Assembly: GCA_033853355.1 (NCBI GenBank)
Contig: JAWOLP010000003.1
Coordinates: 1 to 62,010 of the forward strand
Direction: 5' to 3'
DNA from: Candidatus Micrarchaeia archaeon
Lineage (GTDB): Archaea; Micrarchaeota; Micrarchaeia; Anstonellales; Bilamarchaeaceae
DNA: 62,010 nt
Of this stretch, positions 10,886 to 38,400 are shown piece by piece. How positions within the stretch are numbered: position 1 is the first letter of the stretch; each line of letters begins with the position of its first letter. The notes under the pieces are model-generated. The model was not told the origin of the DNA and did no database searches. It saw only the letters and a program-made list of their open reading frames with translations. The position numbers and the translations under genes are program-made.

Positions 10886-10945
10886 ACCTTTCCGCCGTCG
10901 GAAGGCGCATCAACGGTTTTAAAGCGTGCCGTACATACTTATGAC

Positions 10946-11497: not shown

Positions 11498-11599
11498 GCC
11501 GGCGCAGGCCCGCGGGTGTGGCGGCCCGACCCTCATTGTTATTTTCAGTGATAATTAATGTTTATAAATCGTTCCATACACTATTTTGGATAGAACACC

Positions 11600-12322
11600 A
11601 TGGCCACACCGACCCATCGCTCCACGGCCCAGCTAGGGAGTCTGAAAGACGAGCGGAGCTTCCGGGCGGCCCTGATCTCGCTCGCTAAAAACGGGGATCC
11701 GACTCTGATATCCGAACTCTCCGAGAACCGGGCCATGATGGACACGCGGGACTCCCACAAGAAGACCCTGCTCATGATGGCCTCAGAGCGGGGCCATCTC
11801 GCCCTGGCCGGCTCCCTCCTCTCGATCGGCGCCGATCCGCGCGCGCTCGATGATCACCGCAACTCCGCCCTCATCCTCGCATCATTCGGCGGCCACGGCG
11901 ATGTGGCCAAGCTCCTCGCTCCCGTGTCGGAGATGGCCCAAAGAAACGGCTTCGGCTGGAACGGCCTGATGGGGGCGGCGGTCTCCGGTGACGTGGACCT
12001 GATCTCGTTCCTGGTCGCCAGGGGCGCAGATCCGAAAGATGCCGACGCTGGCGGAAGGACCCCGCTGATGAAAGCGGTGCGCTACAACCGGCTCGATGCC
12101 GTAAGGTTCCTGGCCCCGATCTCGCCGATAGACGCGGCCGACGTCGATGGCGACACCGCACTGCTCAAAGCCTGCCGCTACGGCCTTGCAGAGATAGCCC
12201 GCGTATTGAGGCTCCACGGGGCCGACCCTCTGGCGGAGGATCTCCGCGGCGAGAGCTGCATAAAGAAAGCCAGGAAACACGGCTTCCTCGAGCTCGCCGA
12301 GAGCCTGCTAAAGCCCCTTTAA
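11600..12322 (+). CDS. Ankyrin-repeat protein
   Basis: About 5-6 tandem ~33-aa ankyrin repeats, for example KKTLLMMASERGHLALAGSLLSIGADP, RNSALILASFGGHGDVAKLL, GRTPLMKAVRYNRLDAVRFL and GDTALLKACRYGLAEIARVLRLHGADP. Confidence 0.8.
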   Translation: MATPTHRSTAQLGSLKDERSFRAALISLAKNGDPTLISELSENRAMMDTRDSHKKTLLMMASERGHLALAGSLLSIGADPRALDDHRNSALILASFGGHGDVAKLLAPVSEMAQRNGFGWNGLMGAAVSGDVDLISFLVARGADPKDADAGGRTPLMKAVRYNRLDAVRFLAPISPIDAADVDGDTALLKACRYGLAEIARVLRLHGADPLAEDLRGESCIKKARKHGFLELAESLLKPL

Positions 12323-12684: not shown

Positions 12685-15600
12685 TCATTGGGGATTACCC
12701 TGTATCGCCTGGTTCCTTAGCATGAGGAAATACATAAGGGAATCCCTCATGCGGACCCCGCCGTGCGTATCCAGCCTTCCGTAATCCTGGTTGTTCCGTA
12801 TGAAGCTGTTGTTCGCCCCTGCGCTCTCTACGTTGTCTATGAGCTGCTGCGGGGTGTTGTAGTTGGGCAGGAACTCGTAGCCGCTCGCCACGTGGAAGTA
12901 TTGTATGTCCACATGGACCCGCTCGCCGTAAACCGATTCGAGAAGGGCTTTTGTGAACGGCAGGAGCGTCCTCGAGCTCGAGTCCACCAGCACTCCGTCG
13001 AAGACGACGGGCGAGCCGGGGTTTATCACGCCAGACCTCTCCAGATAGCCGAGCATCTGCGTGCATGCGGCATCGAATTGCGGATCGCTAGCCCTCCTCG
13101 CCACTATCTGCCGCACAAGGCTGGCATTGAAGCTCGCGAACCGATCCCCGCTGGCTGACGCGCTCTCTTGCCTGGCCGTCTCCACCATCCCTCCCACGGT
13201 GCGGTCGAAGAACGCGGTCGCTTCCACAGGATCCACACGCCCTGCGGCGGTCCTTCCGACGCCGGCCTGCCCGAACGCCACCCGGTTCAGCAGCACCCCC
13301 CTGGGCGGGTCTATCCCCAGCGCCTGCGAAAGGACGGCGTCGGCGGCCATGAACCCTCCGCCATCGCGCCAGAGATATACACGGTTCCTGCCGCTGTTGT
13401 CATGGACGACAGCCTCCGCCATCCGGACGACCTGGCCGGCGAGATCCTGCATCCTCACGTCTCCGACCCTCATGGCCGTGATGTCGACCGCCCCGACACC
13501 GAGCTGCTCGGAGATCCTGTTCGCGATGAATTGCATCTGGGCATCAGTCAGCCTAGTGTTCGGCGCGGACCTGACGAAGTCCATGACCGAGGCCAGCAGC
13601 GCACCGGAATCGTTGATGTCGCCGAACCTCCCGAAGTTCGTGCGTAGCTGCTGGGGGATGGCGCTCTCGATGTGCTGCCTGTACTCCTCTATCGTCCTAT
13701 ACTGGCTCTGAGCGTTGAACTCGTTCTCCAGGACGCGGTTGTATATGCCATCCCTGTACGCCGCGTACCTCTGGGCCAGGACGAACGATAGCACCCCCGA
13801 CTCGCTCGTCCTTACCGCCCTCGTCCCAAAGACCGGGTCGGTGACTTCCCATAGCATCGCGTCGTTCAGGCGGTAGACCCTTCCCGGGGCGCTCTCGTCC
13901 CTGACGACGAGCCTGCCGCCCTCCTCGACGGTTATCTCGGACAGCCTCTGATCGTAATAGTTGACCCGGCGCAGGTCCCTCAGCCCCGCGTCCCGCGCCC
14001 TCTCAAGGGTGCTGCCCGGCGCGACGGCCGGCTCGGGACCCATCCTCAGCTCCATGTCGAGCAGCTCGTTCGATACCCGTCCGGCAGCCGCGCGAAGCTT
14101 GGACTCCTGCGTGAGGAAATTCGGGTTCCTCCTGAACTGCTCTATCTGGCCCCGGACCACCCTCGGGAGCAGGTTGAACCTCTCGACCGCCGCCGGGTCG
14201 TTGGCTATGAGCCTACGGGCGAAATCCGCGATGCCTTCCGGCTCCTCGAGGTTCAGCGTCCGCCGGGCCATGTTCAGCACGGCTTCCCTCCCCTGCTGCG
14301 ATCCAAGCACCATCTCCCGCGCTGATGCGAGGTCTGCCGGCGCGATCCCCGCGTTGCGCTGGAGGTACGCGTCCAGCTCGGCCATGCCGCCCGGCCTCCC
14401 GATCATCGGGATGATGTCGGCGTAATGCGGCTCTATCACCGCCTGCATCCTCAAGGCCGGGTCCGCGATGAGGGCATCGAACCGGCTCCTCATCGCCTCC
14501 GGCATGATCTCGCGAAGGGCCACCGCCTGCGGGTCCCCTCTCACCACCGCGCGGGCGAACGCCGAGACATCCTCCTCGCTAGTTATCCGCAGCTGCCTGC
14601 CCTCTATCGTCACGCCCTCCTCCATGGTGGCCGCCACGATCTGCTGCTGCTGCTCGGGAGGGAGGCTATTGAAGCGCGCACGCGCGATCTCATCCCCTGC
14701 AATGATGCGGCGACCGATCTCCACCTGGCCGCCGCGGTCGAGCGTTATCTCGTTGGCCGCCCTGCCTTCCATCCCACTTACGTGGAGGACCTGTGGCGCC
14801 CCGCCGCCACCGGACGACCTGATCCTGATGCTTCCGTCATCCCTCATCACGGGGCCGTCGATGACGCTCCTCTCCACATGCCTCCGGAACGGCCCGCCAG
14901 GATCGAAGAAGTTGCTCCCCATGGCCCTCGCAGGCTCCATGCCTTCCTGGGGCTGCGCCGGTTGCCCGACCTCTCTCCCTACGACGCGGAGAGGCGGCTG
15001 CTGCTGGGGGATGCCCATGTTCGCGGCCTCCGCCTGCTGCGTGGGGAGGATCTGGTCCACCGCGCCATTGATCTCCATCCGCGCCCCCTCCACCTGCGCA
15101 TAGCCTGGGCCGCGGATGCCCTGCTCCCTCCTTTCGCCGAGGTACCTGTTGAGCGCTTCCGGAGTCTGGGCGTTGTTGCGGAACCTCCTGCTGCCGGCCA
15201 GCCTGTTCACCGCGTCCCTCACGGGTTGGGGCAGCATGGCGAGCTGGTCAGTCGCCTCCTGGTCCCTGACCGCCCCGGATTCGGTTGGCATGACCCTCCT
15301 CGCGAACTGGGCCAGCCCGTTCACGTCGCCGAGCCGGAGGCTTATGGCCAGATCGGCCCCGACCATGTCTTTCTCCTGCTGCGTCGGAAGGGAGTTGAAG
15401 CGATTTACGGCCTGGCGCCTCACCTCAGGATCGGTGCTCGCGAGCCTCGAGGCGAGCTCGCCCCTCTGCTCCGGGACATTCATGTCGAGCCTCGGCGTCG
15501 GTATCTGCGAGATGTTGACCGGCACCACCGGCGTGACATCCTCGGGCCCGAGGCGCGGGCCGGGCCCTCCGCCTCCGGGCGGGCGGCCTCCTCCTCCGCC

Positions 15601-18600
15601 TCCCCTTCCGCCGCCCTCCATCACCTGAAGCCCTACCAGGTCGCCTAAGTCGGCCAGGCGGGGCATCGGTTCGGTCACCGCTGTGATCCTTCCGGTCTGG
15701 CGGTCTATCGTGAGCGTGAACTCGACGGCATTCGCGCGCCGCTCCGGCGGCACTTCGCCCTCGCCGACCTGCACGACCCGCCCATTCGTGCGGTCGTAAT
15801 ATCCGCGGACCTCGAGCGGGCCGGTCCCGATGGCGTTGATGTTCTCGAGGCCCTTGATTATCCCGACTGCGTTCCCGACGGCCAGCTCGAAAGGCTCCCT
15901 CTCTCCGGTGAAATGGCCCCTGACGTATCCCCTCTGCCGGTCGTTGAGCGGCGCGGCCGTCAGCGCGCTCTCATAGGTCTGCGCGCTCATCGGATGGATC
16001 AGGTCGGAACCATGCACCTCTATCCGCCCCGGCGACGCGACAGGCGGAGCCCCTCCCATCCTGATAGTCCCTCCAGGGCCGCCTTGCGGCGGAACCGGCT
16101 GGGCTTGCCCAGGCGTGCCAGGGATCTCGCCAGGCGGAGGAGGCGGCGCGGAAGCACGGTTGATATTGCCCTGGCTGACATGCGGCTGCGGGTCGACTGG
16201 ATGGGGAGCGGCGACCGCATCGGCGGGAGCAGCCGGGTGCAGGTTCCCAGGCGCGGGCTGCGGCGGCGGGTTGTTCGGGCGGACGGCGTTCTCGCGGTCG
16301 AGTATCCATCCCCCTATCTCGACGAACTGGTTGTTCATGAACCCCTGCCCCGCGTGCATGAGGCCGTTGAAGACGGGCACCGGGCCGACCGCTGTCGAAT
16401 TTATCCCGGTCAGCTCGCTGAAGCCAGGATCCCCTCTGAGGATGCCGAGAGTGAAGACCTCTGGGGGCAGTTCCGTGCGGTTGGCGGCGAAAGTCGATGG
16501 AGGTATGTCCCTGCGCGCCCTGATCAGGGGGACGCCGGCCTCCTGAAGCTGGACGGCGAGAGGATCGTTCGCGGCGATGACGCCGACCCTCTTCACGACC
16601 GCCCCTCCCGCGCCTGTGTAATCTATCACCCCGACCCTCGGCCCGGCCTCCGGCGGGAGAGCTGCGACGATCTCCGGCGTGACCTGGAAGACCAGCATCT
16701 CCTCTCCGGGCCTGAACATGTTCAGGATCCCAGGATGGATGTTCGCGAGGTTGCTGCCGTAGGAGATCTCGTACGAAGGCCTGTTCTCGGAGCGTCCGTC
16801 ATCATAGATGACGAAGCTGATGGGGTCGCCTGACTGGGGCGAGTTGAACTGCGCTGCCCCGCCCGGGCTCCTGATCATCCCTATCTCGACTGGGCCGAGG
16901 GGGTACCCCATGCCCATGGGCTCTCCTGCGTGGGAGTTGAAGCGCCTCGTAATGTCGGCGCGGTATGTGGCATTGTTCCCGAATTCTGTCCAGAACCTCC
17001 GCCCGCCGGCCGCCATCCCGCCGTTGAAATCGCCGGTTATGCTTATGGCGCCGTGGGGATCCCTGCTGATCTGGACGTTCCCGAAGGCCTCGTGGACGAG
17101 GTCGGGGACGCTACGGCCGGTGACATGGCTGAGGACGTCGAACATCCTGTGGAGGTCGGTGTTCCCGAACCTGTGGTTCATGTTCCCGAACCAGTAGTTG
17201 CCGCCGATCTCCTGGGCCATGTACACGCCGGCCGCGTCGGTATCGATTCCGCCGACAGTCGGGTTCTCTATCCTGAGCGTGCCGTCAGGATCGCGGACTA
17301 CGTTGGTCCCCTCTCTCCTCATCTGGGCGATCTGTGCGTCGCTGAGGGGCTGGGTGATCTCGAGATCCATGACACGGAGGTTTATCTCATGGCGGTCCCA
17401 CAGCCCTATCGCGTACGAGCCGGTGAGCGTGAAGCCGAGCTCCTCCCAGAATCTCGCCCTCACCGCCTGGTCCGGCGATGTGAGAGTCCCCATCACCCTC
17501 TCGTAGAGCTGTATCTGCTGTGGAGTGAACCTGTCGATCATCTGCTGGGCCTGCGCCCTTTCCGCCTCGTTCGTGGAGGTCCTCAGCGTCTCGTATGCGC
17601 TGCGGAGCTCGAGGACCTGCCGGATGCCCATCTCGGCCCTCGCCCTCACCTCGATGTCTAGGTTCCCCCTCCTTATAGTCCCCCTGAAGTCGCCCATGCT
17701 CTCGAGGATGCCGTATCGCGTGCCCGTGCCGTCGGCCATCGTGTAGCGCATGTCGCCTTCCGCCGTGGCTGTGTGGATCTCGGGCGCAGGTATGCCGGTC
17801 GCGCGCGAGTATTCGGCTCCTGCGGCATCGGGCAGCAGGTTCTGCCTCTTCACGTAAAGCGTCCGCATCTCGGTCACGTTCTCGCGCACCCCGCCCGGCC
17901 GCTCGACCTGCCTCGTTACCTCGACCCTCACCTCGTATGCTCCTACCGCGCCGTTATGGAACTCGATAGAGTGTATCCGGCCCACGGCGTTCTCCCCGGG
18001 CGGATACATGCCGCGGATTATGTCCGCGACGTGCCCGGGCATGTCGCCGGACAACAGCATGCCGAAAAGGAAGTGGTCGTCCTCGGGCCTGTTGAAGCCG
18101 CGGTAGGGCTCCGATACCCAGCTGCGGTCCGGCATGTTCGCCCAGGCGAAGGGCTCGAGCTCTATGCCCAGCCGCCGGGCCAGCGCCCCGCGCGCCTCCT
18201 GGATGTTATTGGCGTTCGCATAAATCTGCGTGAGCTCGTTCCTTCCGATGCCATAGATCCTGCCTATGGCATCGCCCACGGGCCCGCGCGAGAGGCTGCC
18301 GAGTTCGTTCAGGTACGTGGCGCCTTCATGCAGGCCGCGCCTATGGAGCTCCCCTACGACCGCCTCCTGCTGCTCGGGTTGCAGCCTCGAAAACTCCTGG
18401 GCGACTATGTCGAGGTGGTTTGCGTCCATCGTGCTGAAATGGTCTATTATCATCCTGCCTGCCAGCGCGCCCGCGCGGTTCTCCAGTCCCTGGCTGCGCA
18501 TCTGCGCCAGGGTCTCCTGCTGCCTCTCGATCGGCATCCTGGCGAAATCCTCCTGCGCCTGCCGCACGCGGGCCGGGTTGCCGCTCCTGTACGCTTCCAC

Positions 18601-21600
18601 TACGTCGGCAGGTTCCGGCCTGCGGATCGAGGAGAGGTAATCCGCCTCTGCCCTCCGCCCGAAGAATCTCAGCTCCGTGATCACCTGGTCCTGATGGGCG
18701 CGGTCCAGTCTCCTGAACCCGCCTTCGGCGTTGGACCTGGCGGCGCCGTCGTTCGTCTGGAACGCGTCGGTTATCTGATCGACTCCCATGCGGGCCGGGA
18801 CGAGGTCTGGATGTCCTTCGATGGCCGACCGGGCCCTGGCCAGCATGGCCGTGCGCTCATTCCTGCCCACTCCCGACTCCGGCCGGAACGCGGCATCGTC
18901 TATGAATCTTCCTGCAGCTTCGAACGCGTCATTGAGCTGCTGGCCGTAGCGGGTCTGGGCATACCTGATGTAAGCCGCCTGCACGTCCGGGCCGGGCCAC
19001 TCCGCCCGGCCTATCACTCCCTGCGGGTCGGCCCCTATCACCGTCACCCTGTCGCTGAAGACCCTGACATACAGGTTGACTCCGTCCGGCGTGCTCACCG
19101 CGACGTCGACATGGGCCCTTATCCCGGCCTGGGGCGTCCCCTGGTTCTCGACCGGGTCGAAAGCGCCTATGACCCCTTCCATGCGCGCAGGCGGCTGCTC
19201 CCTTGTCCCGACGGTCCTCGCGAGCATCGCGCCGAACATGTAATCCTCGGGCGTCGGGGATCCGGGCCTGCCGTTCTGCGCGGCGCGCGCCCTGGCTGCG
19301 TCGTTGACGAACCTGTACGCCGCAGCGGCGTTCCTTGCATTCCCGTAGCCGAGCGCGGCCGCCTCCATCTGTGTCGGCGGAGCGGCCTGCCTCGCGGCCA
19401 GCGCGAGATCGGACACGTCCGTTATCGGCCGGCCTCCCGCGGCGTATTCGCGGGCCATAGCCCTGAACTCGGCAGCCTGGTTGTACGCCGCCATCTGCTG
19501 ATCGTGAGGGAGGGTCTCGGGTGAGACGGTGCCGTTCTGGGTGAGATACCTTATGGTCAACGCTTCGACCGGATCGGCCGGCATGTTGCCGCTCTGGCGG
19601 TACGCCTCGTATGTCGCCTGCACCCCTTGCGCCTCGAACGCCCCGTGGATATGCTGTGAATACGCCTGGGCGAGCGCGTCCTCGTCGAAGGCATTCGGCC
19701 TGGCCGTGATGAACTCGCCGACGAGCCGCTGGACTTCGGGGGGCATTGTATGGAAGTGCATCAGCGCGTCTACTGCCCTTGGACCAAGATTTCTCATAGC
19801 GAGCGCTTCAAATGCATTCGGACGTATCCCATACCGCGCGAAAAATTCATCCGAAGCTGCCGTCCCCCTTGTCTGTATCTCATTTGTAATCCGGCCTGAG
19901 AAATCCCTGGCTAAGGCCGTCTCGTCGTGGGCGCCGGCCCTTTGCGCGATGAAGTCTCTTATGAGCCCCTGGACTTCTGGGGGGAACTTGTTGAAAAGGG
20001 CAACCGCATCATCGTGTCCGGCTGCGGCATTGTTCGTATATACCTCTGTGAATTCAACAAGCCCCGGCCTTCCACCCGGACCTGGCGCCCCCGCAACCCA
20101 CTGCAAGGCAGTACTTACGCCCCCTACCTCATTCTGGGCATTCGTGAGTTCGACGCTGAATTCGATCAGGCCATGCCTGCGCGTCCCCTGCGCCAGCATG
20201 CCGTCGACAGTGCGCCTATAACCCTCGATCGCGTTCCTTCCAGCCTCGTTAATTCCTGCGATGTCAGCAGCGGCGCCGGGATCGTTGTTGATCGCCCTCG
20301 CCGCAAGGTTGCCGAGCTCCCCCGGACCGCTCAGCGCCCTCTCATGCACAACCGGTGCCGGCTGAGGCTCCACATGTGCCTCTTCCGGCGCCCTTCCTGC
20401 GCGCGCCGGGGTGGTGACCTCCTCGTGCGCTGCCGGGGATGGCGGCCTGACCCTCTGCGGGGTGGTCGTTTCCTCATGGGCCGCCGGGGCCGGAGGCTGC
20501 CCTGCCTGCCGCAGCGCATACGCCTCGAAAGCGTATGGCTCTGCCCTCCTCGCGAGGACCTCCCGGGCGGCAGCTATGAGCTCGGGCGATGGATTCCGCA
20601 GATCCTCGAGCGCCCTTCTGTTGGCCGCCCGGATCTCCGAAAAGCTGGCTCCCTCCGGAAGGCGGTATCTCTCCATCATGACATTGCTGAACTCAAAAGC
20701 CGGATCGTCCGCGTTTATCGCGTGGGCGTTCTCGAGCCCTTCGCGATACCTCGCGAGGAACGCGTTCACCTCTGCGTCAGAGACTTCCCTCACGGCCGCC
20801 CTTTCGGCGGGTGGCGGCGACGGCCTCCGCCCTCTGCTTGGGGTGGTGACTCCCTGCTCCTGCGGCGGCGGGGCGGCCGGCTGCACCTCCTCTATCATGC
20901 CGGGCGTGACCTCCTGCGGCAGCGGCGGGGGCTGCGGGCCCCTCCTCCTCGAAGCGGATGTCGGCTCCCCCTCCACTATCTCTATCTCCGGGGCGGATGG
21001 CTCATGCGCAGGCGCTCCCGGCCTGACCGCCTCGCCGGTCGCCGACTCGATGGCCCTCGCGGCCATCTCCCTCCGTGCCGCCTGGTCCGCGCCTGCGAAA
21101 GCGGGGTCCCTGGCTAACGCCTCGGCGATCTCATAGCCGGGCGTGTCGCGCGAGACGCTCTCCCCGCGAGCGATCCTTTCCGCGACTCCGGTGATCCTTG
21201 TGGACAGCTCGGTGTTGACCATGTCGCGCTGGCCCGCCACGAATTCGCCCTGGCCAGCAGCCAGCTGGTCCGAGACCCTGGCCTGCTCGTCGGCGTGCAT
21301 CGCGACGCGCCCGTCCGCGCGTTCCACGATCCTGAGCCTGCCTCCCTGGAGCACCATGTCCCCGATGTTCGGATTCTCCGCGCTGTTGTACGCGTTGAAG
21401 CCTATGCCGAACGGCTGGCCGTCATAAGACTGTATCTCCGCGTTCGCCCGCGCCCTCATCTCAGGCGTGTCGGCCGGCAGCCTCGCTCCCCGCTCGGCCT
21501 GCGGGCTGAAGAAGTCCGAGTGCAGCTGCGAAAGGCTGACCGCCCCGCCCTGCATCAGCGGTCCGCCCGTCCCGCCGATACCCTGCGCCTGCTGCGACGC

Positions 21601-24600
21601 GCGGGTCAGGTCGAGCATGAACGCCGCCGTGCCGTCGGCGAAATCCCTGTTGAAGACCGAAAGATCCGTGCGCCCTGTCTCGGGGCGGGAATATATCCTT
21701 GTCCCGACGCCGTCGGTGTCTATGGGCTGGAATGTGATGTTAACCTGGTTGTCCGAGCCGCGGCTGAGAGAGAAGGCGCTGTTCCTCCGATAGCGGTCCA
21801 TCAGGCCTGCCCGCCTGGACATCTCCTGGTAGGCGCGCCATGCCTCGGCGATCCTCTGCCTGCCCTGCGGCGTCGAAAGCAGCTCGTAGAACGCCCTGTG
21901 CACCGGATTGTTCGGGTCGGGATGGGCGAGGATGTCGGTCACCATCTCGATGCCCTCGACCCTCTGCGTCTGCACCCTGCCGTCGGGGAGCCTGATCTCC
22001 ACGTCCCTGCCGACCAGCGTGCGGATATCCTCTATTATGCCGAATTCCTGCCGCGCCTGGGCAGGCGCCCCGGTTATCGGGTCGGTGTAAGCGACCCCGG
22101 TATCATATGAGAATCCGGAGTGTATGCCGCTGGACATCAAGCCCTCTGCCTGGGCCATCCTCGCGCCGAAGGCCGCGGGAGCGACATCCTCGGCTTTCAC
22201 GAACAAGTGCCTGCCGCCGGAAAGCTCCACCCTGTAGATGCCTCTCAGCCCTCCGAGATGGGTGACTCCGGTTATGGTCGCATCCTCGAATCCCGGCAAG
22301 CCGGCTATGCGCTGCTGCAGGTTGCCCCTCACGACGAGGTCGAAGAGGCCGTTCGCGTTCGCCTCGAGCGTCGCCCGCTCGGTCTGGAGAGCCGTGCGCC
22401 TGTTGTTGAGCTCCCTCTCGAGCGGCGCCCTCGCCGGGTCGTCAGGCGCCAGGTCGTTCACGCGCTGCTGCAGCGATTCCACTATCTGCTCGTTCCTCGC
22501 GATGCTGTCCCGCTGCGCGGCGAAAGGCCTCACTCCCATCCCGTCGAGCACCCTGAGCCTGCCTTCCGCGCCTCCCTGCCCGTAATCATGCGCGATCGAA
22601 TCGACCAGGTCGGGATCCATGTTCCTGGAGCGGCCGAACTCGCGGATGGCGGCGACGTCGCTGGCCGCGACATCCTCAGGCCTGCGGGCGCTCCGCGCCG
22701 CGGCGATGCTGTCCTCGCGCCGGCGGGCGACCCTTGACGCCTCCCATTCGTTCCCGATCCTTTCGCGGACCTGCGGATCGCGGGTCCTCATCGCAAGGTC
22801 GAGCGCCCCGGCCAGCTCATCCCGTCCCGTCCGCTTGAGCGCCTCTATCCTCTGGGCCGAATCGGGCATGGCTCCGAGCTCCCTCGCCTGCGCGAGCATC
22901 TCGGCTGAAGTGTCCGGCGTCGGCCTCATCCTGGCGATCCCGTCGTAAGCCCTCTCGAGGGTCCTCTCGACGGGCTCTCCCTCCGGCGCGCGGGCGATCT
23001 CATCGGCGAAAATCGCCCTCTCGACCGGCGAGGCGGTCTCGAATATCCTCGATACCGTGCTCGTCGTGCTAGTCAGCCTCTCGACCGCGGCCGCCCTCGG
23101 GTCGCGCGCGGCCTCCCATTCCTGGAGCCTGGCCCTTGCATCAGTCCTCGACATGTCGCCCCTCTTGCCCATGAGGGCCTCGGCGACATCAAGGACTTCC
23201 CTGCTCTGCGGCGGCATCCCTGATTCGACCTGCGCCCGCTGTCGGGCGACCTCGGCGGTAGTAATATCTTCCACGTTATGCGCTATCTCCTCTCCTCTCG
23301 CCGCCGGCCCTCCCCTCCCGCCCCCTCTGGGCGCCGCGACCGGTCCGCCCCCGCCTTCGCCGATCGCCGGCGGAGCGCCCTCCCCTCCGCCTCCCCTGCG
23401 CCTGCCTCCCGGGGTCGTGACCTCCTCTGGAGTCGCCGTCGGCGTCACCCTCCGGCCTCCCGGGGTCGTGACCTCTTCAGGCCCGGCCCTGCGGGCAACC
23501 GGCTGACCCTCCGGGGGCCTGGTCGGCACAAGCGTCGGCTGCTCCTCGACGGGGAGTCCGGTGGTGCCTTCCCTCACGGCCGCGGCCGGGACCTCTCCTG
23601 CGCGCACCGGAAGCAGGGTGCCTTCGGGTATGCCTGTGTCCCTTTCGAAGCGCCTGAAAGCGCCCTCGATCTCCTGGGCGCGCGCCGGGTCTGTCTGCCG
23701 TATCTCATCGAGCCTCGCGGCGGCGCGGGTTTCGCGGTTGCCCACCAGCATGTAGCGCCGTGTCACCTCTCCCATCGGATCCTCGGCGCGCACGTTGGGC
23801 TCGACCTCCCTCATGAATCCTTCCATCGCGCGGAGGTCGGCCTGCGCCTGGGCCCTTGCCTGGGGTTGCGCCGCGGCATCGGTCGCGGTCGCGGTGAGCC
23901 TGGCAAGATGATCGTTTATGAGGACATTGTTGCCGGTCCAGCGGGCGCTGTCGGCTTCCCTGGTCGGGCTGAAGGTCGAGTGCGGCTCGTCGGCTGCGCG
24001 ATAGAGCCCTCCGGCGTCCATCAGGACGACGTCGCCGGCCCTCACCTCCCTCCCGTTTATCGTCGTGTGCCAGTTCTCGATGAACTGCCTCCGCGCGGCC
24101 CCGCTCAGGCCTGTTGGTATCTGCGCCTCCGGCGGGAAGACTACTATGAACTGGAAATCATGCATGCCATATCCGTTGGCCTCGAGGGTCTCCCCTATCC
24201 TCTGTATCTGCTGGTACGTCTCAGGCCTGACGAACTCCCTTATCTGCGTGGGGTTCATGTCCCCTATGTACATGCCAGGCAGGAGGTCCATCGCGATCGC
24301 GATGTTGCCATCCACGTTGACGAAGCGGTAGAATCCCGGCCCGACAGGCAGCTCCCTCCCGTCAGGGGATCTGTACGTCATGCCTCCTATGGTGTCGAGG
24401 TTGCCTGCCTCGCCCATCGTCGACGGACGCCCTTCCGCAGCCGGGCGGCCCGTGACGAACCCGAAGAGGTTCTCCCACTGCTCCGCGGTCGGAGGCTGCC
24501 CCCTGTTGAACGGATCCTTGAATACCTTGACGGCCACCCTCCTGGGCTGGCCGTCCACCATTATCTCCGCCTCCCAGACGCCGGCGGTCGAGCCGACCGA

Positions 24601-27600
24601 ATCCTCGGTATTGTCTATCCTCCGGAGAAGCCTGGCCCTCGGGGCTTCTGAGAGGGTCGTGGTCGAGCCGTCCCGGAGAGTGATCCTCCGGCTCTGGTAT
24701 TCCGTCGGCATCCCCTGGAAGCCCTGCTCGCCCAGATGCTCCTCGACCGCCAGAGGGACCGCATTCGGCCTGGCTGCCTCGTCGCGGACGAAAGCCTCGG
24801 CCGCCTCCCTGCTCATGCCGCGGGCGCTCATCAGCTCCTGCGCCCGCGCCTGCTGCTGCGCGGTGAGCGGCTGCGCCTCCTGGCGCACGGCCTCGTTCGG
24901 AGCCCTCGGGACGGTCCTGCCCTCCTCGTGCGCGGCCGGCGGGGCTGTCGGCGCGAGCGCCTCCTCCCTCTCCCTGGCCAGCGAATCGAATCCCCTCGCG
25001 CGGTCCTCGAGCGCAGCGGCCCTCGCCTCTATCCTGGCGACGTCCTCCTCCATCTGGCTCCTTCTTCTCGCCAGCAGCTCCGGATCGTTCGCGAGGCGCG
25101 TCTCCTCCTCCCTGAATGACGACCTTGTCTGCTCGGCCTGATCGTGCAGCCCCCGCGCCTCCGCTCTCGCTCCGGCGGCCCTCTCCCTTATATCCGCGGG
25201 AGTGGCCCTCCGCCTATATGCGGCATCGATGCGGTCGGCGCTGTGCTCGAGCGCCGTGGCCCTGTTCTCGAGAGCTGTCGCACTCTCCAGCATCCCTTGC
25301 CTTTCGACATCGGAGTGGACAGTGCTCTGCGCGTCGCGCCTCAGCTCGAACGCCTGGTCCCTCATCCCCTGGGCATCGTTTCGGCGCCCCTCGGCATGCT
25401 CGGCAAGGTCCCTGGGGACCAGCTCCGGGCTCTCGATGACCGGCCTCACTTCGGTCGCATATCCCGCGTCCATCACTCTGGGATCCGCGGCGATGTCCGC
25501 GACATAGCTGGCCTTGCCCAACGCAAGCCTCAGCTCGGTCGGGGTGTCAGGGCCGCCCTGCGCCCTTGCCGCCCTCGCGAATTCAGGGTCGAACACGAGG
25601 TCGGAGACCTGGCTCCGGATCCTCTCCGGCACGTTCGCCAGGATCTCGTTGCGCCGCGCTTCGGGAAGGCTCGCGAAATCGGGATTCTCGCGGAGGATGC
25701 GTTCTGTATGAAATATCATGTCGCTGGCGGTCTCGACATGCTGCTGGGTGTACGTTATCGCCTCCTCGCCGCGCCCGATGGTGTAGGTCGCCTGCCCGTC
25801 CGGCGCGACCGCGCGCGAGGTGAAATTCGCGCTCTCTACGCGCGCGCGGAAAGCGCTCATGTCGGCCTCCGTCCTCCGCGTCTCCGCGGCGGCGCGCAGG
25901 CTCTCCATCCGCGTTCTCGGCTGGGCCTGCGGGGCCGGAGGCGCAGCCGCGCGCGTGGACGCTGTGAAAGCGTCGGCGGGTTCGGCTCCGCCGAGCCGGG
26001 CCCTGATGTAAGCCCGCTGCGCGTTGTCCAGAGGGAACGGCTGGCCGTTGTTCCCGCTCCTCTCGAATTCTTCGATCGAACTCACTCCACCGCTGTTCAT
26101 GGCCCGCTCGAACGCCTGGTAATTGTTCTCGCTCCTCGCTGATTCTATGGTGCGCCTGCCCGCTGGGCTCGCCGCGTACTCCTCGAAATTCCGCACCCCT
26201 CCCGCCGCGCGGGTGGCGTTGTAGTCCGACAGCACGCCGCGCTCGATGCTCGGGGCCAATGGGCGGTCCCCGAGGCTCGCCCTGTACGTGGTCCTCTCCG
26301 CGATCGGCATCCGGCCGATCTCGCCCTGGAGCCTGGAATAGTCGAGGGCCATGGCGTGCACTTCGCCGGACTGCATCGGGACCCCCAGCAGGCCGGCCTC
26401 TATGACCTGCCTCCATCTGGGGACGTACCTGGGGATGCCCTCCTCGCCGGGGGCCGAGCGTAGCTGCGCATATCTGGCCGCCACGAGCGGCTGGATGACC
26501 GTCTGGAAGCCGTAGAAGCTGGCCTCCCACCATGTCATGTCGCCGTTCTGGACGCTCCGTATCATCGAGGGCATCTGATATGCGAACTGCCCCGCGCCGC
26601 TCACGGCCAGCGCGTTGCCGGTAAGATGGATCGCCCTCTGCGCGATGCTGAGGTCCTCCGCTCCCCACGCCAGCTGCCATGCGCGCTGGCCGAACGAGAG
26701 GGTCCTCGTCGCCTGCGCCGCGGCGCTGGTCCCCTCCGTCCATGTGTTTATCGCCTCGATGGTCGCCCTGCTCGCGCCGGCCAACCTCGCCGCGTTCACC
26801 GCCTGCTCGGTCTCGTTCATCAGCGTGGCGGCCTCGTTCAGCGCGGCGGCTCCCCTTCCGGCGGCGGCCAATTCTCCTGCGAACGGGAGGACCGTCGTGA
26901 CGACCCCGACGCTCACTGTGAATATCGAACCTGCAGTCCACTTGCCCATCTGCTCCCGCTGCTCTATGCCCTCGGCGATGCCCATCGCGCCGACTCCGGC
27001 TGTGAGGACCAGCGACGCGCCGCCGGTCGCCGGGGCGGCCACGATGCCGACCGTCGCGACGGCGAATTTCCCGACGGCCACGGTAACGCGGTAAGCGCTC
27101 CTGTAGCGGCCCATGCTCGCCCTCGCATCGACCGTGGTCTGGTCGTTCGTGTCGACCCACTGCCCCTGCTGGTTCTGCACGAACGGGACGCTCGAGGCGA
27201 GCAACGTGGCCGAGCGGTCCAGGTCGGGGGCTTCGAACTGGATCTCTCCGGTGGCGGTGGAGACCGGAACGATATTCAGCCTGCCGATCGCGGAGAGGCC
27301 GGAATCCCTCGCGCTCCCCTGCCTCGCGGACATCCTGTCGAAGAAGACCTGCTGCGGGTCGGCGCCCCAGGGCGAATCGTGCGCGAATATCACGCTCTCC
27401 ACTTCGCCGTCGAGCTGCATGAACTGCGAATACGCCTCGTTCAGGGCGGCCGTCTGCTGCGGCGTGTTGTGCAGCCTGGAGAGGCCCCAGTATCCCTCGC
27501 CCTCGGCGTGGGTGGTGCTCAGCGAGCCGTCGTTGCCGTGCCACACCCTGCCGACGCCGAGCGTCGCGAGCTCGAGCGTGGTCCGGTCCTCCGCCCTCTG

Positions 27601-30600
27601 CTCCATCACCGGCCGCACGTGGTCCCAAATATCGTCATCGGCGAAAGATGTCAGCTCCCTGGCCTCGCGGTAGTTGAGGCCGCCGAGCTCGTCGGCGAAC
27701 CCAATCGACCTCCCCCCGCGGCCGCCCATGCCGAAATTGCCGCGGAGGTCTGAATATACCGTGATGTAAGCGTAGCCGCCGTGCCGCGAATCGTCGTGCC
27801 ACTCGCGCGGCTGGCCCCTGAACTCGTAGATCGGCGCGGCGACCGCCTCGTTGCGCACGAGCATGTCATAGAACCGGAAGTCGTTCTGCTCGGACGTCGC
27901 TGCCATCGCGCCCTCGAACCTCCGGGCCGCGAACTCGCGGTAGGCCTCGTCCGTGTATCTGTGCGGGGCCCATCCGTGCGCCCTCTCCTCGTCCCTCATC
28001 TCCTCGCTGGTCTCGAGGCGGTATCTCTGCGACTGGTCGGCTGAGCGCAGGTCCTGCTGTCCGGCCCGGATGAATTTCCTGGCATACTCCCACCCTACGA
28101 CCCTCTGCTGGTGCCTCGCGCCGACCTCGAGGGTGGTGGCCGCGGCCTCGAGCTGGGCATCTATCGAGGAGTCCCAACCCTGGAGATGGGACTGCCTGGC
28201 CGCGTTCAATCCGCTCCTGAAGTCCGCGGCATTGGACGAGAGCGCGCCGTATATCTCTCCGCTCAGCTGCTGCGCCCGCCTCCAGTCGGGCGTACCTGTC
28301 ATGGAAGCGAGCAGGTCGGAATGCATCTGGGCGTATGTCCTCCCGTTCGGCCCTATCTCGTTCATCCGGTCGGCCGGGATGCCCTCTATCATGACCATCG
28401 CGAGATACGGGTTCACCTGCAGGATCGAGCCGCCGGCGAGGAGGCGGTCCCTCGCGTCCTCATTGGCCGCCCTCGCGCTGTCCCAGTCCCCCCCGTCGCG
28501 CCTCATGCTGCCGGCAAGATAGCTGATTGGTTGCTGCAGGGCGTTGTTCCGATCCTCGACCTCTCCGCGGCCCCGCACGTCGTCTTCGTCGGTGGGCATG
28601 GCTTCCTGGAATTCGTCGCCGGCATGGTTCGCGCTGTTCCTGCTGGACCAGGCGGCGATCGTGGTCCTGGTGACGTTGACGTCCTGCCGTGTGATCGCCG
28701 CTGCCCTCGACATCTCGCCCTCGACCTGGCCGAGGCCCGCTTCAGCGGCGTCGTACTGGCCGCTCTCGATGAGCGCCTGGTTCCTCGCGAAACGCCCGTC
28801 ATAGTCGACGGCATGGTAATAGAACAGATCCCCGCCGCCGACGACATCGCCCATCCTCCTCTGGCGCTGCGTGTTCGGATCGTAGACCTCGCGGTTGAGC
28901 AGCTCGTCCATCATCCCCTGCCGCTGCGCGTCCCCTTCAGGGCCAGCCGGTATGTTCGAGAGCCGCTGGCGCAGCTGCTCCCTCTCCGAGCTCGGCGGGA
29001 GATGGCTGATCAGCGTGTCGATGACTTCGGGGCGCGGAGTGACGCCGAGCCATGGCACCGTGGTCGTCTGGCCGGGCTGGCTCACAGGCGCCTCGGTAGA
29101 GACCACGCCTATGAACGGATTGTCCGGGCTCATCTCGCCGTACTGGCGCCTGAAGTTCGCGTCGTCTATCCAGACCTGCTGGCGGCCGCTAGCGGCCCGG
29201 ATGCCGAGCCTCGTCCTCCGCAGCATGCTGTTCGACGCGTCGAACCTCTCGGCGTACGCGAGGTTTATCCCGCTCGTCGCGTTGCGGTCGTGCTGGGACG
29301 CATCGTAGTAATCGTGACCGGAATCGTCCGTCGTCCTGGTGTTGGTGGCGTAGCCGACCTGCCTGTACACTTCCTGGAGCAGCGCGAGGTCGTTGCCGGC
29401 ATCCGTGAGGTTCTGCCTGAAGCCTTCCCTCGTGGCCGGATCCTCGACGCGGTCTATCATCTGGTTGATCAGGCCCTTTATCGTCTCGACGTTCTGGGCC
29501 TGGAGCTGCCTTCCCTGCGCCACGAGGCTCTGGGTCTGCCTGGTCTTCGACAGCTCCTGGTTGATGACCGCGGTCCCGACTTGCAGGGTCCGCTGCGCGA
29601 GCAGGAACCGATCCGGGTTTATCACCGGGATCGGCGCTCCCTGCGCGGGGGTCGGCGGGGGCTGGCCTGGCGGATACGGATGGCCCTGCTCGTCCACCGG
29701 CTCCCCGAGGAGGTTCACCCTCTGGCCGGTCCCGAGGCCGATGAAGGTCCGGACGGCCACCGTCGCGTCGAACCTCCCGCTCTCGCGGTGCCTGGACGCG
29801 ACCGAGGTCATGCTGGTGTCGAGGGATGCCACGCCGTCCCTTATCCCCGTGGCGGTGCGTATGAGCAGCTCGCCGTTCTGGCTGTGCTGGAGCACCTGCT
29901 GCTGGAGCAGGAAGCGGTAAAGCTGGCGCGTGCGCCCTTCGTCGGTTCCGGCCTCTTCCCGCAACCGGTTCGCCCTCGCCTGCATCTGCGGGGGGAGCTG
30001 CGGTATCAGCTCGCCGATGCGCCGGTTCACGTCTGCGATCGGCGCGGAATCGACGTTGTTCAGCTCGGTGGAGAATGTGAGGGCGGCGTTCTGCTCGGCC
30101 CTTCCCTGGAAGTATATCCTCTCTGCCGCGGCCCTGGATGTGCCCATGAAAGCGGGGTCGGCGAGCGCCTCCTGCCTCCGGTAGAACCTTTCCGCGACCT
30201 GGTCCCCGCGCGCGTGCGCCAGGTCGCCCTGGCGGTGCAGCCTCGCGGCCTCCCGCCTCCATGCGGCCTCGGACCTGGCGTTCTGCGCATCGCTCCTGCC
30301 GAAGACCCCTGTGGTGAGGAACTCGAGGTCCTCCGAGTTCCTAAGGTGAGTGGTGATCGCCCCCTGCCTCGTGTTGAGCTCGTTCAGCCCGCGGTCCGTG
30401 GCGGCCTGGTCGGTCCCGCCGCCGAGAGCCTGCGCGACCGAGCCGCCGCTTAGGATCGCCCTCGGTATCGGGAGGTCTGTCACCCGCGAGAGGTCCGCCC
30501 TCCAGGTGGTCCCGATCTGGCTTATCCTCCTCCCGCTGATCCGGAAATCCCTGCTTCCGAAATAATTGCCGAGCTGCCCCTCCACGTAATTCATGGCTTC

Positions 30601-33523: not shown

Positions 33524-34381
33524 TCACATCCTTCCGGCCAGCGCGAGCGCGTACGTCCGGTCATCCTCATCGAGCGATTTCGAGCCGATGACCTGGAGGT
33601 TGCCCTTCATGCCGAGGGAGGCGAGGGCGTCCATCGCCTTCCTGCGCAGCTCGCGGTCGGCCGAGTGGGCCGCGAAGGCGTTCATCATGTTGAGGTTCCC
33701 CCGGTATCTCCTGAAATCCTTGGCGAGCGAGGCGAGGCAGAAATCCCTCACGTCCGGATGGAACGCCGAGGAGGCGAGATGCTCGACCGCGGCCCTGTTG
33801 CCGCTCTCGACGAAATGCCTGGCCACCTTCATCCTGATCCCCGCGTCCTCCGAAGAATTGGCGAGTGCGAAGAGGGGAGCCGCGTCGTTCTCCCGCACGA
33901 GCGAATCCGCCTGCGCCTCCAGCACCCGCATGGCGTTATGCCGCGAGCGCGGGTCCGCGGACCTCTGCCTGTATTCGAGGAGCTCGGAGCGGAGCCTCAT
34001 GGCAGAGAGGCGCTCCAGCGCCCCTGATGCGATGTCCCCGTGCCCGCTGGACATGCATGCTATCAGCGACCGCCAGTCCTTCCTCGAGGCTAGCTCGTCC
34101 AGCGAGGCCTTCCTCAGGCTTCCGTCCTCTGATGAGAGGCACTGCTGGACCAGGTAAGCCGCGTCGCGCCCCCCCAGAGGGCCTGCATCGCCGGCGGTCG
34201 CGCCGAAAGCGGACGGGGCCGCGATGCTCTCCAGCATGGGGGCCGGCGGCTGGCGCGGCCTGAAATCGTCGATGCGCAGGACCTTCCCACCCTCACGCCT
34301 CCCCCAGAGCCTCATACCGTCTTTCTTAGGATGCGAACGTATTACAATGCCTTCCAATTCCCCGCTCCCGCCCCGTGCCAT
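33524..34381 (-). CDS. HEAT-repeat protein
   Basis: Repeated HEAT-like units: DPRSRHNAMRVLEAQ, DAGIRMKVARHFVESG, HPDVRDFCLASLAK, DRELRRKAMDALASLG and DEDDRTYALALAGRM. The ATG at 34381 (MARGGSG) is chosen because the AT-rich TATA region 34392-34412 lies inside the longer track ORF. Confidence 0.65.
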   Translation of the reverse strand: MARGGSGELEGIVIRSHPKKDGMRLWGRREGGKVLRIDDFRPRQPPAPMLESIAAPSAFGATAGDAGPLGGRDAAYLVQQCLSSEDGSLRKASLDELASRKDWRSLIACMSSGHGDIASGALERLSAMRLRSELLEYRQRSADPRSRHNAMRVLEAQADSLVRENDAAPLFALANSSEDAGIRMKVARHFVESGNRAAVEHLASSAFHPDVRDFCLASLAKDFRRYRGNLNMMNAFAAHSADRELRRKAMDALASLGMKGNLQVIGSKSLDEDDRTYALALAGRM

Positions 34382-34391
34382 GCGTTTTTTG

Positions 34392-35428: not shown

Positions 35429-38400
35429 TTGGGAACCCCTAACATGAGGCCGGAAGAAGCTGCGAGAGATGCAGACGCGGCCATCGCGCAGCAGCTGCGC
35501 CCCCAGGCGCGCGCGGTCGTCCCCCAGCTCACCCCCTCCGGCTTCGCCTCGCGCGCGGACGAGCAGGTCGGCTCGCTCTCGCAGCACGCGTCCTCGCTCG
35601 GGCGCACGCTCCCCTCACGGATCACGGACGTCGGCGCATTCCTCGCCTCAGAGCCGCTGCGCTCGGCACGAGCGGGCCTGGAGCAGGGCATCGGCATGAT
35701 GCAGGGCACGGTCACCTCCAACCCGCCGCTCGATCCGTCGGTCTTCTTCCCGAACCGCCTGGAGCGGTCGGCCTTCCTCCGCGACGGCTCCCCATTCCTG
35801 ATCATCGACCCGGCCCACGACGCCCGGTTCGCCGACTTCCTGTCCGGGAGGAGCGGCTCGTACCGCGGAAGCGGGCGGGCGGAGTCTGAGTGGGTGGCCG
35901 CGCACGCGGCGGAGCTGGAGCGGCGGGGCATCCGGGTGGAGCGGGGCCAGGGCGACTCGTTCACGCTCACGAACGGCGCCTTCGACCGCTCGCTCTCGGG
36001 AGGCGTCCTCAGCGGGCCGGACTTCGAGCGGTTCATCGCGGCAGGGGTGCCCTCGATCAGCGGGGAGGATCCGGCCAAGGCGAGATGGCTCTCGGAGCAC
36101 GCGGACATCCTCATCGAGCACGGGATCGACGTGCAGGTCGAGGGGAACCGCTTCACGCTGCGGAACAGCGGATTCCGCACCATCGGAGTGGACCCTTCCC
36201 AGTTCGAGGGCAGCGGCTTCCGCGGCACCGCCTTCGACTCGTTCGTCGACGGCCGCGCCCCGACGTTCGAGGGCAACAACCTCGCCCAGGCCAGATGGAT
36301 AGCCGAGCGCCAGCAGCAGCTCATGCAGTCGGGGATACACGTCTACCTTTCCCTGAACCAGCGGGGGGAGCCCAGCGGGCGCTTCGTCCTCCAGAACACA
36401 GCCTTCCTGCCTCCATCGGCCGGCACGTCCCAGCGCGAGGCCCTCTCGAGGAGCCTCGACGACGCGCGGGCCGATATGGGGATGGCCGACACCTACTTCG
36501 CCCGGGCCGGGGAGCTGTGGCGGACCGGGAGGCCGCAGGATCAGCAGCGGGCGAGGGAGCTCGCGTCCGCCGGCATGCAGCTGATAGACCGGGCGCAGCG
36601 CCTCCTCGGCTCGGTCGCCGCGTATGTCGAGACCTCGAGGGTCGTCTATGACCGGCGCGCCGAGATCGAGTCCCTCCCGCCCGACGAGAAGCGCCGCTGC
36701 CTCTCGCTGATAGAGAACGCCGACGCCCTCATCGCGCAGAGCCGGACCGCGGACGACGCCGCGGCGCGCATCGAATACACGCGCCGCGCCGGTTTCCTCC
36801 TCCAGATGGTCGGCGCGACCCTCTATCTCCGCCAGACCGAAGGCATGCTCCCCCCGCAGGTCCGCACCGATGCCGCAGGCTTCCTCAGCTCGGCGATGGA
36901 CATCTATTCGCAGGGCACCTCCGATTCCCTCGAACGGGCGTCCTTCATGCTGGGCCAGGCGAACTCCTTCCTGACGTTCTCGATAGAGCGGGCCGGCATC
37001 CAGGCCCAGTACGACGAAGTCCGGAACCTCGACGCCTACGTGGACGTCACGAGGATGCCGCTATTCCAGACGTCCGGGCGCTTCGACGAGGAAAAGTTCC
37101 AGAGGCTCACCGGCGTGACGTACGCGCAGTACCGGGACGGCATACGCGGCCAGAGCCGGAGGGGGATCGCCACGGTGGCCGCGGCCCTCTACCGCCGCTC
37201 CCTCGACCATTACGACTCCGCGCTCGCGGAGATGCGTGGGCTGATCGCATACTCGGCCGCGAACGAGACGCCGGACAACGGCAGGGTCAGGGCGTCGCTG
37301 GAGACGATCCAGCGCGAGCACGAGATAGGCAGCCTCAACTTCGTCCGGACCGCGCAGCTGGATCCCCTGATATCGTCCGCCCGGACGCTGTCCTCGGTCG
37401 TCCAGCGCCTTCCGACCGAGCGCGACATCGGCGCCCTCTACATGAGCGCGGAAGGGTCGGCCGAGCTGCGCGACTCGCGCGCCGCGGCGATGCGGGCGTA
37501 CTCGCGCGAGCTCGGCACGATAAGCGCCGGCTTCCTCTACCTGCTCTCGGCCCAGAACTCCGAGGGGGCGGAGCGCGAGTCGCTTGAAGGCTCCGCGCGG
37601 GCGGTCCTCTCAAGGGCCGGGGCCGAGAACCAGGCATTCATGGACGCGGCCAACGCGTTCAACGACATGTTCAGCAAGACCTCCTCGTTCATCGCGCACG
37701 TGCAGGGCTCGCTCCTCGACGGGGAGACCGCGTCGCTCTATGGCGAAGAGCTCCTGAGGATCGGGGGCGACCACCTGCAGCAGCTCCTGCAGAACCCGGA
37801 CCTCTCCCGCCCGTATTTCCTGCGCGCCGTGACGGACCCGTCGTTCCTGCCCAGCCTCCCTCACCGCGACGAGCTGATGAGCAACGTCACGCGGCTCGGA
37901 AGGGGCGACCGCCAGAACGCGATCGCGATACTGACAGCCCTCTACGACCCGAACGCGACGCCCGAGCAGGTCCGCAACGCGCTCGGCCTGCTCTCCGCCG
38001 GCGAGATGACGATCGAGACCGCGGCGATGCCGCCCGGGGGGATGCCCCCCGAAGGGATGTCTCGCGAGGACCGCATGCGCGAGTACGGGACCGTCACCAG
38101 GGCTATGCCGGTCCTCGATGCGCTGCGCGAGGTGAACCCGGAGCTCGCGGCGCGGTTCGAGAGGATGCGGGAGCATCCGGAGAGCTTCTCGATCGACCAG
38201 CGCAGGGAGCTGATACTCGCTCTCGTGCGCATGGTCGGCGACGAGCCTGTGAACCGCGCCCTAGACCACATCGAGACATACCTCCGGGACACGTTCAGGG
38301 AAGTCTTCACGGCCCACGCGCAGGACCTCTACGACCGCGCGCGGAACATGGAGCCGAACGCGAGAGGCATGCAGGAAGACGCGAGGCTGATCCTCTCCCG

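Follow-up and report, generated by a model that had tools for sequence, protein, structure and literature searches.

The 62,010-bp stretch of DNA from a Candidatus Micrarchaeia archaeon analysed here (contig JAWOLP010000003.1, referred to below as the window) carries two divergently oriented giant genes, giant 1 and giant 2, whose products are otherwise of unassigned role. A prediction made from the sequence alone had placed homologous protein-kinase-like domains in both giants. The question raised by this locus is whether these segments are related to each other and to kinases, and whether they could be active enzymes. Our results support the view that, within the protein-kinase-like (PKL) superfamily, the two segments are members of a strongly diverged family that had not been annotated before, the fold being assigned from predicted structures. 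This conserved, catalytic-looking module provides an experimental handle on the giants.

The module shared by the giants and its family

All eight peptides quoted in the original prediction, four from each giant, were located where it had placed them (Table 1), and they span residues 2814–3010 of giant 1 (24004–24594) and 2438–2672 of giant 2 (42740–43444). When the whole giants were compared by BLASTP against each other and against themselves, the single significant match between the two joined residues 2772–3010 of giant 1 to 2406–2672 of giant 2 (E = 2e-7 to 7e-7), and in the MAFFT alignment the two segments were 33% identical and all four motifs lined up. Thus, the likeness goes beyond chance and the claimed homology was borne out. 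The homologous module exceeds the span reported originally and comprises approximately 390–410 aa, which in giant 1 include a conserved C-terminal helical extension terminating in ...FRRFERDTGIPEGTLLPV.

Relatives of the module were sought among 1.84 billion representative proteins by hmmsearch, using a profile built from the two-sequence alignment of the giant 1 and giant 2 copies. The 26 matches included the two proteins of the window itself and two probably spurious repeat proteins, while the rest were genuine, and with these approximately 24 true representatives the PKL superfamily gains a rare family. Nearly all members are modules within proteins of 2,000–7,700 aa. The named ones are listed as “hypothetical protein” from metagenome-assembled genomes (MAGs) of Ca. 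Micrarchaeota/Micrarchaeia, except for an Omnitrophota giant and a JGI protein named for its HD-GYP domain, and none of the members' public records that were looked up is annotated for a kinase-like domain. Five loci were found in the GTDB species representatives (four titled Micrarchaeota/Micrarchaeia and one “uncultured archaeon”), and the JGI metagenomes added one further locus only. No relative was present in the IMG/VR viral contigs, thus there is no sign of a viral origin. Word-indexed protein searches with the giant 1 domain or with the alignment of 24 family sequences returned nothing and so missed the existing relatives, for which the exhaustive profile search was required.

The tblastn comparison of the giants with the loci of their relatives showed that the giants are mosaics, in which the same modules occur in differing orders and combinations. 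The kinase-like module is one recurring cassette and is often C-terminal in its protein. Two giants, of 6147 and 6652 aa, are likewise encoded on a related MAG contig, and each of them has one giant 1-type copy. A 7,727-aa protein of Ca. Omnitrophota (P0021), annotated as glycoside hydrolase family 15, also has a weak copy (E = 9e-8 in the full library) with the K, E, D, and D residues present. This is a hint that archaeal symbionts and predators of archaea have either exchanged the domain or converged on it.

Conserved residues and the predicted fold

Conservation was counted in the alignment of the 24 domain sequences, which share 26–42% identity outside the giant 1 clade. Invariant in all 24 are G43, A63, K65, E104, and D188 (domain numbering), that is, the first Gly of a loop with the consensus G-[SA]-[TSG]-[AG]-x, both the Ala and the Lys of VAVK, a Glu positioned approximately 40 or more residues downstream of VAVK, and the Asp of the catalytic loop. 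The hinge, A-M-[DE]-x-x-x-G, also has an invariant Ala and Gly, and D235 in [WMFI]-D-[AVP]-G is found in 23 of the 24 sequences, the exception being a truncated one. The original choice of ATP-anchoring Lys and catalytic Asp thus fell on residues that are invariant across the family. The metal-binding Asp proposed in “GDVVxxD” needed a correction: an Asp is indeed conserved here, but the DFG-equivalent residue is the second Asp of the motif (D235), while the first one occurs in only 18 of the 24 sequences. Two positions after the catalytic Asp (D+2) the family has Gln in 21 sequences, Glu in two, and Asp in one, and the catalytic loop D-F-Q-F-A-V-L leads straight into a strand with no 3-10 helix. 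The residue preceding the catalytic Asp is Gly in 14 sequences, His in three, and Arg, Ala, Cys, Gln, Asp, Lys, or Leu in one each. As this position is simply variable, no difference in activity can be deduced from the His of giant 1 and the Gly of giant 2, contrary to what had been suggested.

The amino acid composition of the giants provided unusual independent evidence on the essential residues. Giant 1 contains 24 Lys among its 6782 residues (0.35%) and giant 2 contains 12 among 2809 (0.43%), with approximately 11% Arg in both, while the neighbouring genes have 2–15% Lys at an equal G+C content of third codon positions (GC3). The relatives are bimodal, with either 0.1–0.4% or 4–10% Lys. 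Genome composition is not the cause of the depletion, since two paralogues encoded on one Micrarchaeota contig (locus L008) contain 6.6% (P0003) and 0.3% Lys (P0005). At aligned positions the loss of Lys is one-way, approximately one third of it leading to Arg, and only a handful of Lys residues are retained. The VAVK Lys is retained in all nine Lys-depleted family members and is the only Lys of the domain in four of them, thus Arg is evidently no substitute at this position, as expected for an ATP-anchoring Lys. The Lys-poor background acts as a “natural lysine scan” and is a puzzle in itself.

The relationship to kinases was examined by comparing the 24-sequence family profile with all PDB chain sequences. 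The Ser/Thr kinase StkP came first (E = 3e-4) and Rio1 next (E = 0.036), followed at E ≤ 2 by A-Raf, FERONIA, ROS, ZAP-70, TGF-beta receptor, and actin-fragmin kinase. In the StkP alignment the loop, VAVK, the helix-C Glu, and the AME..G hinge were in register, K65 and E104 being aligned to the corresponding Lys and Glu of StkP. Individual members gave weak Pfam matches below threshold, namely PK_Tyr_Ser-Thr in three of the 24 sequences (best E = 0.007) and ABC1, Pkinase (E = 0.072), and RIO1 (E = 0.093) in one each. Giants 1 and 2 scored nothing against Pkinase and PK_Tyr_Ser-Thr, no member matched the APH family of Pfam, and neither an HRD nor an APE motif was found in the family alignment.

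AlphaFold2 models were generated for the giant 1 core (260 aa, 24-row alignment; pLDDT 90.9, pTM 0.87) and for the full giant 2 module (409 aa, 17-row alignment; pLDDT 92.6, pTM 0.85). The giant 1 model consists of strands 1–3 with the Lys on strand 3, helix C with the Glu, strands 4–5, the hinge, and helices D and E, after which a short strand, the Asp, and strand 7 follow, D188 being placed between helix E/strand 6 and strand 7. A helical insert specific to the giant 1 clade and a hairpin separate strand 7 from strand 8, which ends in the second Asp. In the giant 2 model the N-lobe contains a helical insert of approximately 90 aa, and a bundle of five helices forms the C-terminus. The Foldseek search of the PDB with the giant 1 core gave 131 matches at E ≤ 1e-3, of which the top 50 were all kinases (probability 1.0, TM-scores of 0.31–0.45), including CK1, Nek7, ULK1, Wee1, CLK1, CaMKII, RET, JAK2, PknE, and the kinase domain of a lanthipeptide synthetase. 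In BFVD, most of the named proteins among the top 50 matches of the same core were viral Ser/Thr kinases, with E-values from 1.5e-4. The giant 2 module matched COQ8A (top), JAK1/2, EGFR, TNNI3K, EphA2, and Rio1 in the PDB (E approximately 1e-3 to 1e-2), with query-normalised TM-scores (TMq) of 0.23–0.32 and a best target-normalised TM-score of 0.46 (Rio1). Essentially only protein kinases were returned for both models, and the kinase relationship proposed in the original prediction emerged from the profile and the structure searches alike.

Judging from these models, the fold is almost certainly kinase-like. The nucleotide-binding core can be modelled as kinase-like with high confidence, while the periphery is family-specific, and the conserved residues would presumably line a nucleotide pocket. 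The predicted N-lobe is canonical (Gly-rich loop, VAVK Lys on strand 3, helix-C Glu, and AM[DE]..G hinge), and so is the predicted catalytic core (helix E, the invariant Asp entering strand 7, and strand 8 followed by the Asp of [WM]D[AV]G), after which comes a family-specific helical bundle; the catalytic loop is a “linear” D-x-Q loop without the usual metal-binding Asn. No curated family covers this domain and no description of it was found in literature searches aimed at the giant proteins of DPANN/Micrarchaeota; the family is new within the well-known PKL superfamily.

Table 1. Positions of the modules, motifs, key residues, and other features of the two giants in the window
Feature	Position	Strand	Residues and remarks
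Giant 1 kinase-like module	23605..24720	minus	aa 2772-3143
Giant 1 module core (N-lobe, catalytic loop, DxG strand)	23941-24720	minus	aa 2772-3031
Giant 2 kinase-like module	42644..43810	plus	aa 2406-2794; C-terminus of the protein; helical insert of approximately 50 aa in the N-lobe
Giant 1 motif GSTAGVWEAEIMVDGQPRRVAVKVFKD	24514-24594	minus	aa 2814-2840
Giant 1 motif NIAIAMDLLPG	24274-24306	minus	
Giant 1 motif GYGMHDFQFIVVF	24136-24174	minus	
Giant 1 motif AGDVVLMDAGGL	24004-24039	minus	
Giant 2 motif GSSGVVYLGEMEFEGRTVQVAVKIYRD	42740-42820	plus	
Giant 2 motif NMAFAMERVVG	43142-43174	plus	
Giant 2 motif YDVGDFQFAVL	43340-43372	plus	
Giant 2 motif PGDVVVWDVSGL	43409-43444	plus	
Giant 1 Gly-rich loop GSTAG	24580..24594	minus	aa 2814-2818; first Gly in 24/24
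Giant 1 K2836, VAVK Lys	24526..24528	minus	predicted strand 3; invariant in 24/24; kept in 9/9 Lys-depleted relatives
Giant 1 E2875, predicted helix-C-equivalent Glu (predicted partner of the Lys)	24409..24411	minus	invariant
Giant 1 D2959-F-Q2961, catalytic loop (D-x-Q)	24151..24159	minus	Asp invariant
Giant 1 D3006 of MDAGG, DFG-equivalent Asp	24016..24018	minus	after predicted strand 8; Asp in 23/24
Giant 2 K2460	42806-42808	plus	
Giant 2 E2546	43064-43066	plus	
Giant 2 D2642-F-Q2644	43352-43360	plus	
Giant 2 D2668	43430-43432	plus	
Giant 1 gene	12685..33033	minus	open reading frame of 6782 aa; database version begins at M27
Giant 2 gene	35429..43858	plus	open reading frame of 2809 aa counted from TTG; database version begins at M6 (35444)
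Giant 1 hydrophobic Gly-rich hairpin	26860..27087	minus	aa 1983-2058; sole predicted membrane segments of giant 1; upstream of the kinase-like module
Giant 2 hydrophobic Gly-rich hairpin	38663..38797	plus	aa 1079-1123; sole predicted membrane segments of giant 2
Giant 1 second-family module A	21634..22317	minus	aa 3573-3800; HLFVK ... GLMDRYRRN ... IDTDGVG
Giant 1 second-family module B	17134..17964	minus	aa 5024-5300; LYVK ... GLWDRHEIN ... GGIDTDAAG

Activity of the module and alternative readings

On balance, we lean towards the reading that the module has the PKL fold and works as an active phosphotransferase. In such an enzyme ATP-Mg would be bound through the Lys, the Glu, the D-x-Q loop, and the DFG-equivalent Asp, and phosphate would be transferred, some other group derived from the nucleotide being less likely. 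By analogy with ChaK, the Gln of the loop (Q2961 in giant 1 and Q2644 in giant 2) may act as the second metal ligand. According to Scheeff and Bourne, exactly two PKL families have a linear loop, ChaK (alpha-kinase) and PIPKII-beta; these share the Asn exception and have no 3-10 helix in the loop, and the amide of Q1767 in ChaK, two residues after D1765, occupies the place of N171 of other kinases (PMC1261164).

Several observations weigh against this reading. Single-sequence searches of the PDB sequences with both segments returned nothing relevant, Pfam, searched with both segments and with the whole giants, and NCBIfam gave no significant match to the domain, and the best E-value of the family profile was only 3e-4, with coverage of the N-lobe alone. 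The modest TM-scores of the core, and even more so of the full module, place the family far from any solved kinase, although the fold can be recognised. In the active site, the second Gly of the loop is present in only 11 of the 24 sequences, and the canonical position of the catalytic-loop Asn (D+5) is occupied by Val, Ile, or Leu in all 24, the Asn being absent from every member. Furthermore, each giant has one hydrophobic hairpin and no N-terminal signal peptide was detected in either of them, so the module might meet ATP either in the symbiont's cytoplasm or in the host.

The atypical catalytic loop could also be explained by a kinase fold that serves a different chemistry, for instance the AMPylation known from SelO, the glutamylation known from SidJ, or the phosphorylation not of a protein but of a lipid, a sugar, or another small molecule, for which APH, choline kinase, PIPK, and COQ8 are examples. 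The top match of the full giant 2 model was COQ8A, an atypical UbiB/ABC1 kinase-like protein, the weak ABC1 and RIO1 Pfam matches of single members point in the same direction, and PIPK likewise lacks N171. Neither the APE motif of an activation segment nor recognisable substrate-binding helices were seen in the models. However, the best structural matches of the core were ordinary Ser/Thr and Tyr protein kinases, the best sequence match was the Ser/Thr kinase StkP, and there was no specific pointer to any one of these alternatives. We regard a different chemistry as unlikely, although it deserves consideration.

In canonical kinases the loss of the Asn is a frequent mark of pseudokinases, thus its absence from the whole family, together with the variable second Gly of the loop and the strong divergence from active kinases (TM-scores of 0.3–0.45), would also suit a nucleotide-binding scaffold, which has a kinase-like fold and a binding or allosteric role in the giant but transfers nothing. 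Pseudokinases, however, typically lose at least one of the VAVK Lys, the catalytic Asp, and the DFG Asp, whereas in this family these three residues and the helix-C Glu vary hardly or not at all despite the low identity of the members. Moreover, the VAVK Lys survives the lysine purge, and the conserved Gln, Glu, or Asp at D+2 can supply a metal ligand, as in ChaK. An inactive scaffold appears to us improbable. The coincidental occurrence of these motifs on an unrelated fold, such as that of Peptidase_M24, is effectively refuted: the only Pfam match of the giant 1 segment was a sub-threshold one to this family (E = 0.0014–0.0035, 18.6 bits vs. the cut-off of 23), which covered 80 residues, was limited to four near-identical giant 1-type sequences, and was judged spurious, while two independent high-confidence models retrieved essentially only kinases from two structure libraries and the family profile matched kinases in register.

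The giants, their surroundings and known systems

Micrarchaeota are DPANN archaea living as episymbionts, with genomes of approximately 1 Mb and dependence on a host cell, and approximately 29 kb of DNA is invested in the two giants by one such small-genome archaeon. The true start of giant 2 is probably the ATG at 35444, giving a protein of 2804 aa. The flanks contain archaeal housekeeping genes (ribosomal protein S3Ae, DUF373, Ham1, an archaeal-type ProRS, and a THEP1-type NTPase), a gene for an S-layer-like protein, and tRNA-Val. The ProRS shares 88% identity with its counterpart in a Ca. Micrarchaeia MAG and 83–86% with many Ca. Micrarchaeota/Bilamarchaeum proteins, which places the window in the Micrarchaeota. 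Megablast of the left flank (window 1–12000) against phage records found nothing. The G+C content of the giants is 0.67–0.69 vs. approximately 0.60, for which horizontal transfer need not be invoked, as their GC3 matches that of the neighbours. The loss of AAR Lys codons, partly to Arg codons, is expected to raise the G+C content, although the size of this contribution was not quantified. The contig of one relative carries a giant 2-type giant together with ProRS. An ankyrin-repeat protein gene (11600–12322, plus strand) abuts the 3′-end of giant 1, and a HEAT-repeat protein gene (33524–34435, minus strand) sits between the divergent giants. Both repeat types are rare among archaea and are a typical feature of proteins that act in interactions or as effectors.

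NCBIfam and PADLOC searches with the whole giants gave nothing meaningful. The hydrophobic hairpins of the two giants are weakly alike (39% over 28 aa, E = 0.18), and that of giant 1 showed a very weak match to MakE, a subunit of an alpha-pore-forming toxin (E = 0.057). In both giants the kinase-like module lies C-terminal to the hairpin and in giant 2 also after a GNAT acetyltransferase domain, which is located just upstream of the module (41792–41980, plus strand, aa 2122–2184) and was recognised by Pfam Acetyltransf_1 (E = 3.7e-5, 24.4 bits vs. the cut-off of 20.7). Another conserved module of giant 2 (39953–41035, plus strand, aa 1509–1869), built around K1556, is shared with relatives and is found directly upstream of the kinase-like module in two of their loci (L004 and L005). 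It has no Pfam match; its motif IAGDKQLLNQINDVFGRDGG resembles by eye the metal and phosphate site of GGDEF/nucleotide cyclases, and K1556 is one of the 12 Lys residues retained in giant 2. Repeats were also noticed by eye in giant 2: three copies of approximately 60 aa with the pattern “...A[RE]W[LVI]..H...L...GI.V......F.L.N..F” near the N-terminus (aa 140–340, approximately 35846–36448), and two to three copies of “Y.P.EF.L.LG......I...FV.WA...W” just before the kinase-like module (aa 2210–2400, approximately 42056–42628).

A second repeated module family is represented by two copies in giant 1 (Table 1) and by two in each of five related giants. Its motifs are an invariant Lys ([VL][FY][VAI]K), D-R-x-x-x-N, and I-D-x-D, and both of these Lys residues of giant 1 survive the lysine purge. 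The order of the motifs seems to resemble that of PI3/4-kinase, APH, or HipA, and a link to kinases is no more than a lead. The second family matched nothing in Pfam or among the PDB sequences, and hhalign gave only a weak match to the first, kinase-like family (E = 0.12).

A role of the giants at the symbiont–host interface is plausible by analogy, because a part in host interaction has been ascribed to the giant membrane-anchored proteins of other DPANN lineages and of archaeon-eating Omnitrophota. More speculatively, the kinase-like module would be one enzymatic cassette of modular, membrane-anchored giants used at or across the host contact. It is conceivable, although we think it rather doubtful, that the giants are host-directed multi-effectors, whose Gly-zipper hairpin would reside in the membrane of the symbiont or the host and whose C-terminal enzyme cassettes (the D-x-Q kinase, the two DRxxxN/IDxD modules, and the GNAT domain) would face the host cytoplasm. 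The lysine purge would then be adaptive, evading either the Lys-directed modification or degradation by the host (ubiquitin-like/SAMP-proteasome) or self-modification by the giants' own cassettes; the few surviving Lys residues would mark catalytic sites. Within one genome the purge affects some paralogues and not others.

Giant multi-enzyme proteins of comparable design, acting at the surface or in host interaction, have been described in episymbionts and predators, namely nanohaloarchaea and Omnitrophota. The nanohaloarchaeal “SPEARE” giants are membrane-anchored, modular proteins of thousands of residues with several enzyme domains (PMC10266531), and the “Archaeovorins” of archaeon-eating Omnitrophota are likewise giant, modular, and membrane-anchored and have several enzyme domains (bioRxiv 10.1101/2023.11.21.568195). 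They resemble giants 1 and 2 in their size of thousands of residues and in belonging to small-genome, host-dependent organisms. In the searched passages of both descriptions, no kinase-like module of the type found in the giants was mentioned. Unlike in these proteins, neither Ig/adhesin, protease, or VirB4 domains nor a signal peptide could be detected in giants 1 and 2, and no sequence similarity was detected between them and SPEARE.

Among the kinases, the eukaryotic-like Ser/Thr kinases (PF00069; StkP/PknB, CK1, CLK1, and ULK1) were the best matches in both the profile and the Foldseek searches. They share with the giants' family the Gly loop, the VAVK Lys, the helix-C Glu, the AME..G hinge, the catalytic Asp, and the D-x-G Asp, in an identical order and on matching secondary-structure elements. 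The family differs from them in having no HRD motif, D+5 Asn, or APE/activation segment, and its C-terminal helices do not superpose (TM 0.3–0.45).

The minimal kinases of the RIO, Bud32, and APH type, to which the module had been likened originally, have an HxDxxxxN loop and a compact size of approximately 200–270 aa. Rio1 (PF01163) was the second family in the profile search and gave the best target-normalised TM-score for the giant 2 model. The archaeal occurrence, the compact form with no activation loop, and the Gly preceding the catalytic Asp in most members, as in “HGDxxxxN”, are common to the two groups. Nevertheless, this placement could not be upheld. The family is not of the RIO/Bud32/APH type because the Asn of HxDxxxxN is replaced in all its members, and the IDxxQ metal loop is also missing. 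Neither is the module minimal, since its approximately 400 residues include extra helical parts, namely the insert in giant 2 and the conserved C-terminal bundle.

The alpha-kinases (TRPM7/ChaK1) and PIPKs differ from the family in that none of them was among the top structural matches, alpha-kinases being absent from the top 50 Foldseek matches of either model. The zinc module and the C-terminal Gly-rich loop of the alpha-kinases were not seen in the giants' family, and a Cys-based zinc site is unlikely because each giant contains only two Cys residues. The likeness to alpha-kinases and PIPKs is confined to the motif level and consists of the D-x-Q spacing and the linear loop. With regard to kinase evolution, the family offers a further case of a D-x-Q loop without the Asn, so far known from alpha-kinases.

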